Assembly (NCBI GenBank): GCA_004524445.1
Contig: SDNP01000029.1
Span: forward strand, 1 to 38,747
Length of the DNA stretch: 38,747 nt
From: Candidatus Thorarchaeota archaeon
GTDB taxonomy: Archaea; Asgardarchaeota; Thorarchaeia; Thorarchaeales; Thorarchaeaceae
Direction: 5' to 3'
Under the pieces are notes generated by a model. It was not told the DNA's origin. It did not search any database and was given only the letters and a program-made list of their open reading frames with translations. A program made the position numbers and the translations under genes. Shown here one piece after another: positions 13,213 to 20,242 of the stretch; the first letter of the stretch is position 1, and the number at the start of each line of letters is the position of its first letter.

Positions 13213-14292
13213 CTATTCTTTTTGAATCTCCTCATAACGAATGCATCGTATCCAGTGTCCTGGCTCTACTTCTCTGTATTCAGGAACCTTTTCCTTGCAC
13301 CCATCTTTCGCAAAGTCACATCGCGGATGGAATGGACAGCCTTCTGGAATGTTGCGTGGGTCAGGTGGCTCGCCTCGGATGCCCCTAAGTTTCGGACGGG
13401 ATCCTCCCTCACGCATACGCATCATGGCAATGGTTGGAAATGATGCCATCAAGCCCATGGTGTACGGATGACCTGGACTATGGTATATTTGAACCGCATT
13501 GCCAAGCTCCATTATTTTGCCTGCATACATTATGGCAATTCTATCCGAAACCTCAGCAATCACACCTGCGTCATGGCTAATCATGATGGTCGAAACATCG
13601 AATTCGTCTTTGACCATTTGAAGCACATTCATTATCTGTCTTTGAATCGTCACGTCTAGTGCACTGGTTGGTTCATCGGCTATTACTAGATATGGTCCTG
13701 AGATTAACGACATGGCAATGAGTACCCTTTGAGCTTCTCCACCACTAAAACTGCCGGGGTCCAATACATAGCGAGTGTCCGCGTCGGCTAGGCTCACGAG
13801 ATTGAGAAAATCCAAGACTTTCTTCTTCATTTCTATGAGACGCACATCTTCATCATGAATCTCAATTGGCTCTCCTGTTTGCATGCCAATGGAATATTGT
13901 GGATTCAGTGCATGTGTGAGTCCTTGTGGAATCATTGCAATCTCTTTTCCTCTGAGTTTTGCAAGCTCTTCATATGGCGTGTTCAGCATGTCATGTCCTC
14001 TGAAGATTACTGTGCCAGTAGCGCCAGGCGTTTCTTCTCCGTTTTTCTCAAACTCCTTTAGGAGTCCTGGTACATTGGATGAACCTGCTCGAAACCGTGC
14101 CATCTTGTCGAAAAGCCCGATTATGGCAAGAGCAAGTGAGCTCTTGCCACAGCCACTCTCGCCCAAAATGCCTAATGACTCTCCCTTCTTCACGTCAAAT
14201 GAAACATCATCGACTGCTTTTATCAAACCGTCTTTTGACGGGTAGTATGCTCTTAGGTTTTCAACATGTAGTATGACTTCCTCGTCGGACAT
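13213..14292 (-). CDS. Orphan OppD-like ABC ATPase
   Basis: GESGCGKS, FSGGEAQR, IADEPTSALD, ISHD, GCPFHPRC...C...C; start at MSDEEV. Confidence 0.92.
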   Translation of the reverse strand: MSDEEVILHVENLRAYYPSKDGLIKAVDDVSFDVKKGESLGILGESGCGKSSLALAIIGLFDKMARFRAGSSNVPGLLKEFEKNGEETPGATGTVIFRGHDMLNTPYEELAKLRGKEIAMIPQGLTHALNPQYSIGMQTGEPIEIHDEDVRLIEMKKKVLDFLNLVSLADADTRYVLDPGSFSGGEAQRVLIAMSLISGPYLVIADEPTSALDVTIQRQIMNVLQMVKDEFDVSTIMISHDAGVIAEVSDRIAIMYAGKIMELGNAVQIYHSPGHPYTMGLMASFPTIAMMRMREGGSRPKLRGIRGEPPDPRNIPEGCPFHPRCDFAKDGCKEKVPEYREVEPGHWIRCIRYEEIQKE

Positions 14293-14375
14293 GATGCTCA
14301 CTTCTAGGTCCAGAAAGTTTTGTATTAAAACAATGTTGATGAAGCAGAACTTGATTTTCATTAAACCTACTTAGT

Positions 14376-14388: not shown

Positions 14389-14418
14389 TGGATTGTTCTT
14401 CGTTTGATAGGGTTAAGA

Positions 14419-15597
14419 ATGAGCAAGGTGTATTTCTCGGACAGAAAAGCAGAATCTCACTATAACATGCTTGACAAGCTGGAGCATGTCCTACAAGAGA
14501 TGGGATTTTTGGATGCAATTGAAGAAGGCGAAAAGGTTATGGTCAAGACCCATTTTGGGCAATGGGGAAATACTAACTATATTCGTCCTGCCTATGTTCG
14601 GAAGGCCGTTGAACTTATTCGTGAAGCGGGTGGTGTCCCATTCGTTTGTGAATCTTGCGGGCTTGGTTATGGTGAGGGTGGTGCATATGGCGGACGAACA
14701 ACGGCTCCTGAATATCTTGCCATGGCTGAACTGAACGGCTATACGCAGGCAACGGTTAATGCCCCGATACTCATGGCAGATGGTTATTGGGGGACTGATG
14801 TCTTTGATGTCGAGATTGACGGTGAGTACGTGAAAAAGGTAGATGTAGCAACCGCTGTCCTTGATTCTGATAAGATATTGATGCTCACACACGCAAAGGG
14901 TCATGGTCTCGGTGGGTTAGGTGGATCTGTCAAAAATCTTGGAATTGGACTAGTAGGCAAGAAAGGCAAAGCCGAGATGCATTGGATGGGCGATATCGAT
15001 TTGGATGAAGAGAAATGCCTGGGTCCTGAATGCTCTAAGTGCCTGAAGGTCTGCCCAGTAAGATGTATAACAATGGAAGAAAAGGCTAATATTGAAAAAG
15101 ATGAATGCATTGCATGTTATCACTGCATTCACGTATGCAATCGTGTTAAGGCAAAGGCTATCTCAATGACCTGGCGCCCAAATCATACGCAAGTCTATAG
15201 ATTTGTTGAGAACGCTCTTGGGGTCATTGATTCCATTGGCCGCGAGAAGTTCTGGTATGTCAATCTCGCAGTGGATATCTCCGACAAGTGTGATTGCTGG
15301 AATGTAGGTGCACCTCTACTAGTTCATGACATTGGCATCTTCGGCTCAAAAGACCCTTTGGCTATAGACCAAGCATCATTGGATGCAATAAATGAAGCTC
15401 CTGCCAATCCAGAGTCCGCAGTTGGTAAAGAAGTGTGTCAGGAGAAGTTCGCTACTGCTCATGCCTGCAAGGACCCCGATTCTGGCGAGATTGTGCCGCT
15501 TGCCGATATTCAGATGGCTCATGCTGACAAGATGAAGTTGGGTTCTCGCGAATATGAGCTTGTCCAGCTGACAAGAGAGAAGCCTGACAAGAGCTAG
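14419..15597 (+). CDS. DUF362-family Fe-S protein with an inserted 2x[4Fe-4S] ferredoxin domain
   Basis: VKTHFGQWGN, ADG, THAKGH, GGSVKNLGIG, CLGPECSKCLKVCP / CIACYHCIHVC, CDC, DIGIFGSKDPLAIDQA. Confidence 0.88.
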   Translation: MSKVYFSDRKAESHYNMLDKLEHVLQEMGFLDAIEEGEKVMVKTHFGQWGNTNYIRPAYVRKAVELIREAGGVPFVCESCGLGYGEGGAYGGRTTAPEYLAMAELNGYTQATVNAPILMADGYWGTDVFDVEIDGEYVKKVDVATAVLDSDKILMLTHAKGHGLGGLGGSVKNLGIGLVGKKGKAEMHWMGDIDLDEEKCLGPECSKCLKVCPVRCITMEEKANIEKDECIACYHCIHVCNRVKAKAISMTWRPNHTQVYRFVENALGVIDSIGREKFWYVNLAVDISDKCDCWNVGAPLLVHDIGIFGSKDPLAIDQASLDAINEAPANPESAVGKEVCQEKFATAHACKDPDSGEIVPLADIQMAHADKMKLGSREYELVQLTREKPDKS

Positions 15598-16511: not shown

Positions 16512-17837
16512 CTATGTATCTCGGATCTTTTGCTTTCCTCTCTGCAAATATGGAGTGAACCTGATACGTGATGGGCACACGTATGAACAGAGTCCGCAGT
16601 CAATGCATACCTCAACATGAAGCTTCTTCAATCGGTCTATATCTCCTGCTTTTTCAGCCTCCATTATCAGTTGAGGATAGATATCAACTGGACAGACAGT
16701 ATTGCAATAGCCACAGCGGATACATGGCAGGGGGTTCCGATACGGATCCGGTTCCTTTTGTGTGAAAGCGGTGATTCCCGAGGTCGCTTTCAAAACAGGA
16801 TATGATGAATTAGGTATGGAGGGGCCCATCATTGTTGAACCAATCACAATACGTTCGAATTCGCTTGGCGATACCCCGACTGATTCTAGCACATGCTCGA
16901 CCGGTGTACCCATTCGAACCCAGAGATTCTTTCCTCCCGTTTTTTTCGAATACATGGTTAGGCCCCTACTAACGAGCGGCTCTCCATCTATGACTGCCCG
17001 TTTGACAGCATGCGCAGTCGATACGTTGTGAACCACTGCCCCAATGTCTGGTGGATATTTCCCATATGGAATCTCTTTGTCAAGAATCTCCTTTATGAGC
17101 AATTTCTCGCTTCCGATCGAATAGCTAGGCCTTATTCTTATGATAGGGATGTCGTTTTCGCCCAGTAGTTTCTCGAACTCAGGAATCTCACCCTCTTTTG
17201 TTCTTGTGGCAAATATGACCTCATCTGCCTCAAGCATCTGGGTCATCAACTTGATTCCAGTTATTATTCCAGCGGGCTTTTCGACCATCAGTCGTGAATC
17301 GCATGCTATGTTTGGGTCACTTTCCTTTGCATTGATAAGAAGATGAGATATCGGTTTCTCTGGAGATAATTTGACATGAGTCGGAAATGAAGCTCCCCCC
17401 AGACCTACAACACCTGCTTCCCTTACCCTCTCCTGCAATTCCTCTGTTGTCGCATCATCCGGATCTAAAGGCTCGTAGTAGGGTTTTTGTTTATCATCAT
17501 GGGTTTCTATAATCAAAGCCATCTCTTTCTTGCCCGATTCGGGATGCTGCCTTTGGGTCAGGGCAACAACTCTTCCGTTTACTGGACTATGTATGGGAAC
17601 AACAAGCGGTCCGCCACTCAAATCATCACCAATCTTCTGTCCGTAGAATACCTTATCGCCTACTTGAACTGAGGGCTTCGTTTCAGGTCCGATATGCTGA
17701 CGCAGGAAAACAACCATCTCCTTAGCCGGCGGAATAAATATGAACGGGGAATCCACTGCATCTCTCTTCATGGACAGGTCCATTTTGAAGCCCCCCTTTT
17801 CTACAAACTCACTTACAGGTTTTTCGTTGGTCTTCAT
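16512..17837 (-). CDS. rnfC: RnfC/RsxC-like electron-transport subunit
   Basis: LRQHIG, PIHSPVNG, AGVVGLGGASFPTHVK, CIRCGYCNTVCP and CIDCGLCSYVCPS. Confidence 0.92.
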   Translation of the reverse strand: MKTNEKPVSEFVEKGGFKMDLSMKRDAVDSPFIFIPPAKEMVVFLRQHIGPETKPSVQVGDKVFYGQKIGDDLSGGPLVVPIHSPVNGRVVALTQRQHPESGKKEMALIIETHDDKQKPYYEPLDPDDATTEELQERVREAGVVGLGGASFPTHVKLSPEKPISHLLINAKESDPNIACDSRLMVEKPAGIITGIKLMTQMLEADEVIFATRTKEGEIPEFEKLLGENDIPIIRIRPSYSIGSEKLLIKEILDKEIPYGKYPPDIGAVVHNVSTAHAVKRAVIDGEPLVSRGLTMYSKKTGGKNLWVRMGTPVEHVLESVGVSPSEFERIVIGSTMMGPSIPNSSYPVLKATSGITAFTQKEPDPYRNPLPCIRCGYCNTVCPVDIYPQLIMEAEKAGDIDRLKKLHVEVCIDCGLCSYVCPSRIRFTPYLQRGKQKIRDT

Positions 17838-17839
17838 GA

Positions 17840-18886
17840 CTAGGTTCCTCCGTCGTCCTCCCTTAGTCCATAAGGTGTCCTGATTCCGATTTTGTCAAGA
17901 TATGGCGTTGCTAGGTTAAGAACTAATAGTGCGATAATCGATCCTCCAAGGACATTAAGAAGTTGTAGTGCAAATGTCAGTAGGGCAAGTGTAACGCCAA
18001 AGATAATCTGGGATATTTCCGGCATGGGTGTTGACTGCGGTTCAGTTGCCATAAAGAAGACCATGAAGATGACACTTCCTGTGAAGACATGGAACGCAAT
18101 CCGCAAAATGGGATCTCCTCCGACTGCCAGTCCAGTAATTACAGCAAGAGCCGTCATTGTCGTCAGAGTAGATATGATGATGCGCCACTTGAATTTGAGC
18201 CAGTATGCTGCTAGCGCACCTACAACGAGTACGACAATTCCAGATGCGCCGCCAATCCAGCCATGGGTTTGCCAGAGCACAAGGGCCTGCGCGGGTGAGA
18301 GCTCAATACCCAGAATTGGCAATATCTTTCCACTGAAAATCCACATCGAGTCCTGAAAGCCTTCAGCACTCAGAAGATCCAGGCTGAGATGATGTGGATG
18401 AAAGATCATCCCAACGTCCAGAGAGTCTTCCAAGAATATCATGAGAGAGAGCAGTACGAGCAGCACAGTCTTAGATGCTGCAGCAGGGTTGACGTATTTT
18501 CTGTCGAAATATGCCCCCTGTCCGTACTTGAACACTAGGATTGTAATCAAGGCCACGGTAACAGTAACTAGAAATGGACTGGCGATGGGCATAGCTAATC
18601 CCACTATCAAACCTGCAACCATGGGCGAGCTAGGTGATTCATATGTTGGTTTCATTCCTCGCCATTTCTGATAGTAGAATATCAGACCATGTACCAGAAT
18701 AACCGTGACAACAGCAATCATGATATGAAAGAAGGCATCGAGGCCCATCACAATGACAGAGGCAAGAGCGATGAATGACATCGACAGAAAGGTCTTGAAC
18801 ATCAACTCGTCCTTTGTGAAGCCCATGTACATGTGTGGTGGTTCAACCTTGACATATTCTACTGCGTTTTCCTCTTCATTGCTCAT
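17840..18886 (-). CDS. rnfD: RnfD/NqrB-family membrane subunit
   Basis: PPH, VNPAAA, GWIGGAS, VFFMATEPQSTP; ~10 TM helices; GGTGA SD. Confidence 0.88.
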   Translation of the reverse strand: MSNEEENAVEYVKVEPPHMYMGFTKDELMFKTFLSMSFIALASVIVMGLDAFFHIMIAVVTVILVHGLIFYYQKWRGMKPTYESPSSPMVAGLIVGLAMPIASPFLVTVTVALITILVFKYGQGAYFDRKYVNPAAASKTVLLVLLSLMIFLEDSLDVGMIFHPHHLSLDLLSAEGFQDSMWIFSGKILPILGIELSPAQALVLWQTHGWIGGASGIVVLVVGALAAYWLKFKWRIIISTLTTMTALAVITGLAVGGDPILRIAFHVFTGSVIFMVFFMATEPQSTPMPEISQIIFGVTLALLTFALQLLNVLGGSIIALLVLNLATPYLDKIGIRTPYGLREDDGGT

Positions 18887-19117: not shown

Positions 19118-20242
19118 TTAGAATTCAGGAAGTTCTTCGTACCTGTGGCAGAAAATCCAATGATCATCTTCCACTTCACGATACTCAGGAACCTGTTCGA
19201 CACAGATGTTTCTCTTGTACTGGCATCTAGGATGAAAAGGACAGCCAGATGGTGGATTCGTCATATCGGGTGGACTTCCTGGAATCCCTCGAAGAATCAA
19301 ACCCTTCTCCCTGATTCTCCGTATCATTTCCATTGATGGGTTGCTCATGAGAAAGGCTCTTGTGAATGGGTGTCCAGGGTACATTAGAATGGTTTCCGCG
19401 TCTGCGAACTCCATTATGCGTCCTGCAGACATGACTGCTATTCTGTCTGCGGTTTCTGCCATGAGACCCTGGTCATTAGTGATAAGGAGCATAGTCAAGT
19501 CCAGCTTCTCACGTACCAAATTGATGGCATCCATAATTCGTCCTTGCACTCCAACATCGAGGGCTGTAGTTGGCTCATCAGCAATGAGGATTTCAGGTAC
19601 CATTATGAGCGCCATGGCAATCAACACCCGTTGGTCTTCTCCCATGCTGAATTCCTTGGGTTTCAAGGCCTTGCGGATGTCTATATCACCAATCTCTACC
19701 AGGTCCAAGACCTGGAGTACCCGCCTCAGGACCTCCCTCTCATATAGAACACTCTCATCATCGTGAGCCCATAGCGATTCAGCTGTCTGTAGTTGAATGT
19801 TAGTATATGGATTCAATGACTTCATTGTTCCTTGAGGGACATAGGTAATCTCATTTCCTCGAATTTTCCTGAACTCTTCTTCGTTGAGGGCGAGTAAGTC
19901 CTCTCCTTTATACCAGATGTGACCTTCAACTCCGGGCAGCTTCTCTCCAATGTCATCAGAAGTCTTGCCCTCTTTGCGAGCTTTCTCACGCAGTTCCCAA
20001 AGTCTCTTGTTTTCTTTGTCACCCGATGCTGAACCGAATTTTGCTGTCTTCTCAAATATCCCCAAAATCGCCAACGCTACAGAAGACTTGCCAGCGCCGG
20101 ATTCGCCGAAGAGACCTACTGATTCCCCTCTCCTGATGCCGAATGATACATCATTGACAGCGTGCACCAAACCACGTTTTGACGTATAGGCCGCCCTTAG
20201 GTTTTCTACCTTCAGAACGTATTCATCAGCATGTTCTGGCAT
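19118..20242 (-). CDS. Second orphan OppD-like ABC ATPase with degenerate signature and H-loop
   Basis: GESGAGKS, FSMGEDQR, IADEPTTALD, ITND (canonical ITHD), GCPFHPRC...C...CH. Confidence 0.92.
   Translation of the reverse strand: MPEHADEYVLKVENLRAAYTSKRGLVHAVNDVSFGIRRGESVGLFGESGAGKSSVALAILGIFEKTAKFGSASGDKENKRLWELREKARKEGKTSDDIGEKLPGVEGHIWYKGEDLLALNEEEFRKIRGNEITYVPQGTMKSLNPYTNIQLQTAESLWAHDDESVLYEREVLRRVLQVLDLVEIGDIDIRKALKPKEFSMGEDQRVLIAMALIMVPEILIADEPTTALDVGVQGRIMDAINLVREKLDLTMLLITNDQGLMAETADRIAVMSAGRIMEFADAETILMYPGHPFTRAFLMSNPSMEMIRRIREKGLILRGIPGSPPDMTNPPSGCPFHPRCQYKRNICVEQVPEYREVEDDHWIFCHRYEELPEF

Follow-up and report, generated by a model that had tools for sequence, protein, structure and literature searches.

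A recurrent RnfD-like/RnfC-like gene pair in a Thorarchaeota genome as a probable stand-alone, non-pumping electron conduit

The contig SDNP01000029.1 of a Candidatus Thorarchaeota archaeon (GenBank assembly GCA_004524445.1), analyzed here over its whole length of 38,747 nucleotides and called the window below, carries two adjacent minus-strand genes that resemble rnfD and rnfC of the Rnf complex. Contig C14 of this genome (2.79 Mb in 64 contigs; 90% complete) corresponds to the window. The RnfD-like gene comes first (window 17840-18886; 348 amino acids [aa]; P0001) and ends in a TAG stop codon, which is followed after a 2-nt spacer by the ATG of the RnfC-like gene (window 16512-17837; 441 aa; P0002). 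P0001 matches Pfam PF03116 (NQR2_RnfD_RnfE) with 111 bits against a cut-off of 27.7, as its sole Pfam domain, and scores 64.7 bits against NCBIfam TIGR01946 (RnfD), whose cut-off is 207. P0002 reaches 396.7 bits against TIGR01945 (RnfC; cut-off, 246) and holds the Pfam domains Complex1_51K, RnfC_N, and Fer4. Databases name the two proteins ordinary Rnf subunits or hypothetical proteins. An earlier note, made from the DNA letters alone, had described an isolated D-to-C pair with no rnfG, rnfE, rnfA, or rnfB in the window. This description is correct: the window holds no rnf gene other than these two, the coordinates of both open reading frames (ORFs) are confirmed, and the strings GMIFHPHHLSLD, GWIGGAS, and NAKESDP, as well as both CxxCxxCxxxCP motifs, were verified in them. 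The features of the RnfC-like gene are as follows.

16512-17837, minus strand: RnfC-like subunit for NAD(P)H, flavin mononucleotide (FMN), and 2x[4Fe-4S], 441 aa (TIGR01945, profile match to 7zc6_C, Pfam)
17367-17405, minus strand: GLGGASFPTHVKL, the glycine-rich FMN/NADH loop, in which G145, G147, G148, P152, K156, and L157 are invariant
17313-17333, minus strand: NAKESDP, a variant of NAAECEP/NGAECEP, >95% conserved in the family (alignment)
16689-16724, minus strand: first CxxCxxCxxxCP [4Fe-4S] motif, C372-P383, with invariant cysteines; its cluster adjoins the RnfD-like protein in the model (interface 370-390)
16572-16607, minus strand: second CxxCxxCxxxCP [4Fe-4S] motif, C411-P422, with invariant cysteines

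The RnfC-like protein appears near-canonical. Its family profile aligns end to end with the RnfC chain 7zc6_C (330 bits; E value, 1.9e-97), the glycine loop GLGGAxFPTHVKL is the same in RnfC of C. tetanomorphum and RsxC of E. coli, and all eight cluster cysteines are invariant, features with which the protein should, by homology, bind non-covalent FMN and NAD(P)H. The replacement of NGAECEP by NAKESDP had been taken as an altered cofactor motif. Although the string is there, and both [4Fe-4S] motifs are kept as claimed, it aligns to INAAECEPY of RsxC and to NAAECEP of 7zc6_C with N, A, E, and P kept and with no cluster ligand involved, so that we regard it as a conservative family variant that gives no sign of an altered cofactor. 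A similar string, NADESEPG, is present in NuoF.

The RnfD-like gene carries the following features.

17840-18886, minus strand: RnfD-like polytopic membrane protein, 348 aa (PF03116, AlphaFold2 model and Foldseek, homologue clusters)
18803-18865, minus strand: N-terminal cytoplasmic arm, aa 8-28, with the pattern PPHxxxGFxKxELM, which would insert into RnfC according to the model interface
18482-18490, minus strand: NPA with N133, the aligned equivalent of riboflavin ligand N123/N124 (alignment to 7zc6_D, invariant columns)
18470-18472, minus strand: K139, aligned to R130 of canonical RnfD and invariant (PMC9588780)
18389-18400, minus strand: HPHH, aa 163-166, within the linker that joins the two five-helix halves, the region of the lost flavinylation motif; H166 is invariant
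18248-18265, minus strand: HGWIGG, aa 208-213, a family signature in place of GxIGE[T/V]S (E185 replaced by G213)
18035-18049, minus strand: ATEPQ, aa 280-284, with E282 as the aligned equivalent of D248/D249; residues 283-289 contact the RnfC ferredoxin domain in the model
17861-17896, minus strand: C-terminal cytoplasmic arm, aa 331-342 (predicted interface residues 331 and 335-342)

An AlphaFold2 model of the RnfD-like protein, built from 87 sequences (mean predicted local distance difference test score [pLDDT], 86.7), found confident Foldseek matches among RnfD and NqrB chains only, the best being 9eri_D, 8ahx_D, and 7zc6_D at a template modeling score of ~0.7. Residues were mapped by HMMER alignment to C. 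tetanomorphum RnfD (7zc6_D), together with family conservation and two published studies (PMC9588780; 10.1101/2024.06.21.599731). These studies give N123/N124 and D248/D249 as the riboflavin ligands of RnfD, N123 and D249 being the residues in A. woodii. The corresponding N133 and E282 are invariant in the family, the latter position still being Asp in the Bathyarchaeia clade, which suggests that the riboflavin ligands are kept. R130 of canonical RnfD, which lies beside the isoalloxazine of the FMN (PMC9588780), is matched by the likewise invariant K139.

In contrast to the riboflavin site, the outer pocket that holds covalent FMN in canonical RnfD is remodeled: T153 is lost, E185 is replaced by G213, and N90 by A98. 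The flavinylation motif Dxx[S/T]xATPL, found in canonical RnfDs, occurs in no member of the RnfD-like family, nor is any Ser or Thr conserved in aa 145-206. Thus, the observation that P0001 lacks a [S/T]GAT-type flavinylation motif and has GWIGGAS for GSIGETS extends to the whole family as far as the motif is concerned. In the same region, H166, H208, and W210 are new conserved residues found in all clades, and conservation is strong for the residues of the linker and the outer face as a whole. The HPHH string, whose conservation the earlier note had wished to see examined, is less uniform. H166 is family-wide, as are H208 and W210, but H163 and H165 are conserved (≥90%) in the clade partnered with RnfC, to which the whole HxHH motif and H54 are specific; at this position, YPEH is found in the clade fused to a formate-dehydrogenase-like module and DH in that of Bathyarchaeia. 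A metal ligated by these His residues is a possible, putative occupant of the site.

We then looked for the rest of Rnf by six-frame profile searches of whole genomes, in each of which named control genomes were matched. The genome of this archaeon contains one PF03116 match and one RnfC_N match. RnfA/E (PF02508) had no match in it, nor in 16 other genomes that carry the family, while the positive controls matched; the 17 carriers span seven phyla, namely Asgard archaea, Thermoplasmata, Bathyarchaeia, and four bacterial phyla. RnfG-type FMN_bind domains (PF04205) were likewise not matched in the archaeon's own genome and occur in 1 of 10 carriers tested. The flavin transferase gene apbE, which the earlier note had proposed to search for together with rnfABEG, is also missing from the own genome (ApbE, PF02424) and was found in 1 of the 17 carriers, an Atribacterota metagenome-assembled genome (MAG) whose ApbE and FMN_bind genes lie on a contig other than that of the pair. 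For RnfB (TIGR01944), the best match in the own genome scores 47.7 bits (cut-off, 68.7), and these sub-cut-off matches are to ferredoxin domains that cover just the generic 2x[4Fe-4S] part of the model. Among five bacterial carriers, PF03116 is represented by the RnfD-like copy alone in four, and a Halanaerobiaceae genome has five canonical RnfDs in addition.

The pair is not confined to this archaeon. Homologues of P0001 form ~100 clusters with 41 to 86% identity, labeled Thorarchaeota, Promethearchaeia or Lokiarchaeota, and Thermoplasmata, and we recovered 54 loci from contigs of one genome per species. The archaeal hosts are Asgard archaea, Bathyarchaeia, and halo(alkali)philic Thermoplasmata (Ca. 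Natronoplasma, Saliniplasma, and Haladaptatiplasma), and the bacterial hosts are Atribacterota, Acetothermia/Bipolaricaulota, Thermotogota, and Halanaerobiaceae/Clostridia. Many of the 54 loci come from MAGs of soda-lake or saline-lake sediment, and the pair is shared mainly with anaerobes of such sediments. The family is rare: a profile search of 1.84 billion cluster representatives returned 19 matches at an E value of ≤1e-30, beyond which lies a continuum of 1174 ordinary RnfD/NqrB matches at ≤1e-10. Two sets of motifs split the groups cleanly, HGWxGG and FFMAT[E/D]P[Q/A] without a flavinylation motif in the RnfD-like proteins, and Dxx[S/T]xATPL, GxIGE[T/V]S, and FFMATD[Y/M/W]VT in the canonical ones.

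A phylogeny rooted on canonical RnfDs, a check that had been suggested along with the original observation, gave the same division, with the RnfD-like proteins forming one fully supported clade on a long branch. Within this clade, Bathyarchaeia branch first, followed by the bacterial groups and then by an archaeal clade rich in Thermoplasmata, in which the Asgard sequences are nested with moderate support (SH-aLRT, 80). This branching pattern fits a gene that reached the Asgard archaea by horizontal spread better than one inherited vertically in them. Its occurrence in the host phylum is also patchy (7 of the 151 genomes sampled; 3 of 26 within the own family), and the pair is probably an accessory trait that this archaeon acquired horizontally. 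The RnfC-like gene directly follows the RnfD-like gene, overlapping it or a few bases apart, in ~45 of the 54 loci, and both genes show ratios of nonsynonymous to synonymous substitution rates (dN/dS) of 0.10 to 0.16 against their nearest relatives. The proposal of a minimal two-subunit module, made from the window alone, is therefore supported by a pair that is conserved, under purifying selection, and found without RnfABEG or ApbE.

Candidates for a conserved third partner did not hold up, since nothing outside the D-C pair is shared beyond close relatives in the 54 loci. Universal stress protein (Usp), Alba, M29 peptidase, and flavin adenine dinucleotide (FAD) oxidoreductase genes proved to be lineage-local neighbors only. 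One Ca. Natronoplasma MAG carries a gene for a 193-aa membrane protein directly after the RnfC-like gene (L012:12418-12999), with a weak match to Ferric_reduct PF01794 (26.6 bits, just below the cut-off); the sister locus L013 is without it, and we set this gene aside as a singleton. In three Thermoplasmata MAGs (L026:1639-4387, L029:11069-13762, and L032:11080-13806), a single RnfD-like gene is followed by two tandem RnfC-like paralogues.

Complex prediction supports a physical association of the two proteins. The RnfD-like and RnfC-like chains reached an ipSAE of 0.83, compared to 0.30 for the best control, with three runs agreeing in ≥94% of contacts and a partner pLDDT of 88; the mark applied to ipSAE is reached by 58 of 80 solved complexes and by 2 of 110 mismatched pairs. 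In the predicted interface, residues 8-28, 283-289 (the EPQ loop), and 331-342 of the RnfD-like protein face the RnfC ferredoxin domain, supporting a model in which the RnfC-like protein docks through the terminal arms. P17, G22, and K25 of the N-terminal arm are conserved (≥90%). In solved Rnf, the equivalent N-terminal arm of RnfD is buried in RnfC, and the equivalent C-terminal arm lies on its surface (PMC9588780). Since Rnf complexes are solved and the predicted interface mirrors them, the score may reflect likeness to known structures.

Further support for electron entry into the membrane subunit comes from loci in which the RnfD-like protein is joined to other modules. In Halanaerobiaceae/Clostridia, it is fused to a 2x[4Fe-4S] domain and a formate-dehydrogenase-like molybdopterin oxidoreductase in a protein of ~1125 aa, encoded upstream of NuoE-, NuoF-, and NuoG-N-like genes. 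In Bathyarchaeia, it is fused to a 2x[4Fe-4S] domain (L052:1643-3001 and L054:10010-11437), which at L055:9977-12133 is accompanied by FrhB/FdhB, the F420-reactive subunit. What stays constant is an RnfC-type di-cluster domain opposite the RnfD-like membrane domain, and what varies is the cytoplasmic dehydrogenase. Because three different dehydrogenase modules are wired to the RnfD-like protein through the same 2x[4Fe-4S] domain, we infer that electrons enter the membrane subunit, and the RnfD-like domain can be regarded as a reusable membrane redox socket. In two of the bacterial operons, multi-FMN_bind proteins follow, with six domains in one (L042:10001-18525) and two in the other (L047:4428-11822), and these operons may encode a formate/NADH dehydrogenase that is anchored in the membrane and electrically connected to multi-flavin proteins outside the cytosol. 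As side observations, the Bathyarchaeia loci L052 and L054 are flanked by B12-binding radical SAM genes, and L052, L054, and L055 have in common a conserved protein of 225 to 233 aa without a Pfam match.

Taken together, these results make it probable that the pair is a half-Rnf, that is, an RnfC-RnfD arm that is self-sufficient without RnfA/E/G/B and serves as a non-pumping electron conduit fed by NAD(P)H, with an outward route favored. The RnfC-like protein would sit on the cytoplasmic face, gripped by the N- and C-terminal arms of the RnfD-like protein. By homology, NAD(P)H would exchange hydride at the non-covalent FMN of the RnfC-like protein, and single electrons would pass through its two [4Fe-4S] clusters to enter the RnfD-like protein at the retained riboflavin site (N133/E282). 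From there, the route that we rank first would lead outward through the remodeled pocket (H166, H208, W210, and K139) to an external acceptor; having lost its covalent FMN, this pocket could hold a non-covalent flavin or another cofactor. The route ranked second would lead from riboflavin directly to a lipophilic acceptor in the membrane. The outward route owes its rank to outer-face residues that are invariant across very deep clades and to the two bacterial operons with extracytosolic multi-flavin neighbors. The menaquinone-pathway markers MenA and MqnA/D had no match in the four bacterial carriers searched, which we also count in its favor, and there is a precedent in partial NQR/RNF-like systems, for which one-way transmembrane electron transfer has been proposed (PMC8238504).

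Two parts of the initial interpretation bear on this scheme. The first, that the pair is distinct from ion-pumping Rnf, agrees with the absence of RnfA/E, to which a study of A. woodii assigns Na+ translocation, RnfD being only an electron wire (10.1101/2024.06.21.599731); with RnfA/E missing, no Rnf-type Na+/H+ pumping is expected. The second, that the module is FMN-free, is too strong. It is valid solely for covalent FMN on the RnfD-like protein, where the site is lost, because the RnfC-like protein retains the glycine loop and the end-to-end RnfC alignment, and should keep non-covalent FMN, while the RnfD-like protein keeps N133, E282, and K139.

The strongest alternative is that the pair is a non-pumping NAD(P)H:lipophilic-carrier reductase, in which electrons stop at the cytoplasmic-side riboflavin and reduce a quinone-like compound, the outer pocket being structural only. 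The retained riboflavin ligands would suit this role, by analogy to the riboflavin-to-quinone step of Na+-NQR, in which NqrB riboflavin is the cofactor that directly precedes quinone. Moreover, the own genome holds a MenA-like prenyltransferase gene beside genes for a polyprenyl synthase and a geranylgeranyl reductase, and 32 of 41 genomes of the archaeal family carry a MenA-like gene. However, the distribution of this lineage-wide gene does not follow that of the patchy RnfDC pair, the four bacterial carriers and two of six Asgard carriers gave no match to it, and MqnA/D was found in none of 10 carriers. In addition, the invariance of H166, H208, and W210 across very deep clades is hard to explain if these residues are filler. 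We therefore consider a lipophilic-carrier reductase rather unlikely, and menaquinone as an obligate acceptor is unsupported across the carriers, given a MenA-like gene that is lineage-wide and unlinked to RnfDC.

The MenA-like cluster itself lies on another contig of the genome (C64:5881-12377; locus L071) and comprises genes for a geranylgeranyl-reductase-family protein, a polyprenyl diphosphate synthase, a MenA-like 1,4-dihydroxy-2-naphthoate (DHNA) prenyltransferase, an HdrD/GlpC-like CCG iron-sulfur protein, and a GlcD-like FAD oxidase. The score of the prenyltransferase against TIGR00751 is 107 bits, just above the cut-off. The cluster may be a sign of a prenylated, quinone-like lipid, in a lineage that is usually considered to lack quinones.

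Alternatively, the RnfD-like protein might have no redox role and act as an anchor or as a channel resembling urea/ammonium transporters, with the RnfC-like protein reducing a soluble partner (a ferredoxin or a reductase) in the manner of PrdC/PduS-type homologues. Soluble RnfC-like proteins do exist, and P0002 matches PrdC TIGR04481 in part; the RnfD fold resembles urea/Amt transporters (PMC9588780); and no acceptor was identified. Yet the PrdC score of 159 bits is far under the cut-off of 490, the riboflavin-binding residues do not vary, nor does the EPQ loop that faces the cluster, and the wiring of three dehydrogenase modules to the RnfD-like protein through one kind of domain would be left without a purpose, which together make a non-redox role improbable. 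Finally, one might suspect the decaying remains of a once complete Rnf operon, or an assembly gap that hides the other subunits, in a MAG of 64 contigs and 90% completeness whose proteins bear the names of ordinary Rnf subunits, but either is very unlikely in view of the purifying selection, the recurrent pair with its conserved gene order and tight coupling, the absence of RnfA/E from all 17 carriers in seven phyla, and the substitutions that, instead of being the decay that the earlier note had allowed for, are conserved as invariant motifs of a distinct clade.

Several observations weigh against the proposed half-Rnf with an outward route. All genomes considered are MAGs, which makes the absences provisional. 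All-against-all clustering of the ORFs in the 54 loci revealed no acceptor or outer partner, as no neighbor besides the D-C pair is shared beyond close relatives. A flavinylated outer partner as a general rule had to be rejected, since most carriers have neither ApbE nor FMN_bind; the multi-FMN_bind neighbors were seen in only 2 of ~5 informative bacterial loci, and in a genome that also holds five canonical RnfDs. The MenA-like prenyltransferase cluster of the own genome leaves a membrane carrier possible for this particular archaeon. The cofactor assignments all derive from sequence homology, and whether HPHH coincides exactly with the former FMN site is uncertain: both helix spacing and a single weak HMMER alignment to NqrB put it at the position of Thr153, whereas MAFFT and an alignment to A. 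vinelandii RnfD put it 9 to 30 columns away from the flavinylated Thr. Hence, the alignment to RnfD and NqrB that had been called for gives a clear answer on the missing flavinylation motif and Ser/Thr but differing answers on HPHH.

With these reservations, it is tempting to speculate that the RnfD-like proteins constitute a so far unrecognized class of flavinylation-independent transmembrane electron conduits, in which an inner riboflavin and a new outer His/Trp site carry electrons from cytoplasmic NAD(P)H, formate, or F420H2 to the exterior. We put this forward as a tentative idea, more doubtful than the half-Rnf itself. If true, such conduits would allow some Asgard archaea and other saline-sediment fermenters to dispose of electrons outside the cell or to connect electrically with syntrophic partners.

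Among known systems, the pair is structurally closest to Rnf (RnfABCDGE; 7ZC6, 8AHX, and 9ERI), with which it shares a near-canonical RnfC, including the FMN/NADH loop and two [4Fe-4S] clusters, and an RnfD fold with RnfC-clamping terminal arms and the riboflavin ligands N133/E282. It differs in lacking RnfA/E/G/B, ApbE, and the flavinylated Thr motif, in having HGWIGG instead of GxIGE[T/V]S, in its D-then-C gene order, and in an RnfD-like protein far under the TIGR01946 cut-off. As tests for the four subunits, for ApbE, and for the covalent FMN site were all negative, the pair is not an Rnf complex as defined, and without the Na+-translocating RnfA/E, the U-shaped ion-pumping electron path of Rnf is impossible for it. 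Conceptually, the pair resembles the NQR/RNF-like single-pathway systems described by Meheust et al. in 2021 (PMC8238504), which are also partial and combine an NqrB/RnfD-type membrane domain with a cytosolic NAD(P)H module. In those systems, found mostly in Actinobacteria and the candidate phyla radiation (CPR), the membrane domain and an NqrF-type NAD-binding domain (PF00175) form one fused protein, and the systems are defined by ApbE/FMN_bind gene clusters (PMC8238504). In contrast, P0001 has no PF00175 fusion, its donor is a separate RnfC, no flavinylation machinery was found, and the hosts are archaea and fermentative anaerobes. The pair thus falls outside the published definition, which requires both the fusion and the flavinylation gene cluster, and we view it as a new variant of these systems.

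The NqrA-NqrB pair of Na+-NQR likewise consists of a homologous cytoplasmic and membrane subunit, with riboflavin in the latter (in our pair, by homology). However, NqrA has lost FMN and Fe-S clusters, NqrB keeps covalent FMN (T236), and Na+-NQR also needs NqrC-F and reduces quinone. The soluble RnfC homologues PrdC and PduS share the Complex1_51K FMN/NADH domain and Fe-S clusters with P0002 but have no RnfD partner, and P0002 stays under the PrdC cut-off as given above. We found no description of a stand-alone RnfD-like/RnfC-like family in the searchable literature; one paper on Asgard archaea (PMC8163825) does no more than list "B and C subunits of Rnf" for Hermodarchaeota.

If RnfD works as a wire without RnfA/E, this would independently support the notion that RnfD/NqrB does not pump Na+ and would show Rnf to consist of separable modules. 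A membrane NAD(P)H oxidoreductase would also alter models of redox balance, and possibly of extracellular electron transfer, for presumed strict fermenters and syntrophs, namely, Asgard archaea of the Thor/Lokiarchaeia type, Atribacterota, Acetothermia, and halophilic Thermoplasmata. Because of their labels as Rnf subunits, these genes can cause a nonexistent Rnf ion pump to be inferred in metabolic reconstructions.

The genes around the pair, encoding OppD-like ATPases, DinB, and a DUF362-Fer4 protein, are common only to the closest Thorarchaeota-like relatives. Two orphan OppD/DppD-like ABC ATPases (ABC_tran plus oligo_HPY; window 19118-20242 and 13213-14361, both on the minus strand) flank the RnfDC/DinB/DUF362-Fer4 block on both sides; in each, the ABC domain is split by an insertion, and neither adjoins a permease gene. 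The DUF362 protein, which has an inserted 4Fe-4S di-cluster domain, is encoded at window 14404-15597 on the plus strand, convergent to the RnfDC operon, and its gene is kept beside the pair in the closest relatives only (4 loci).

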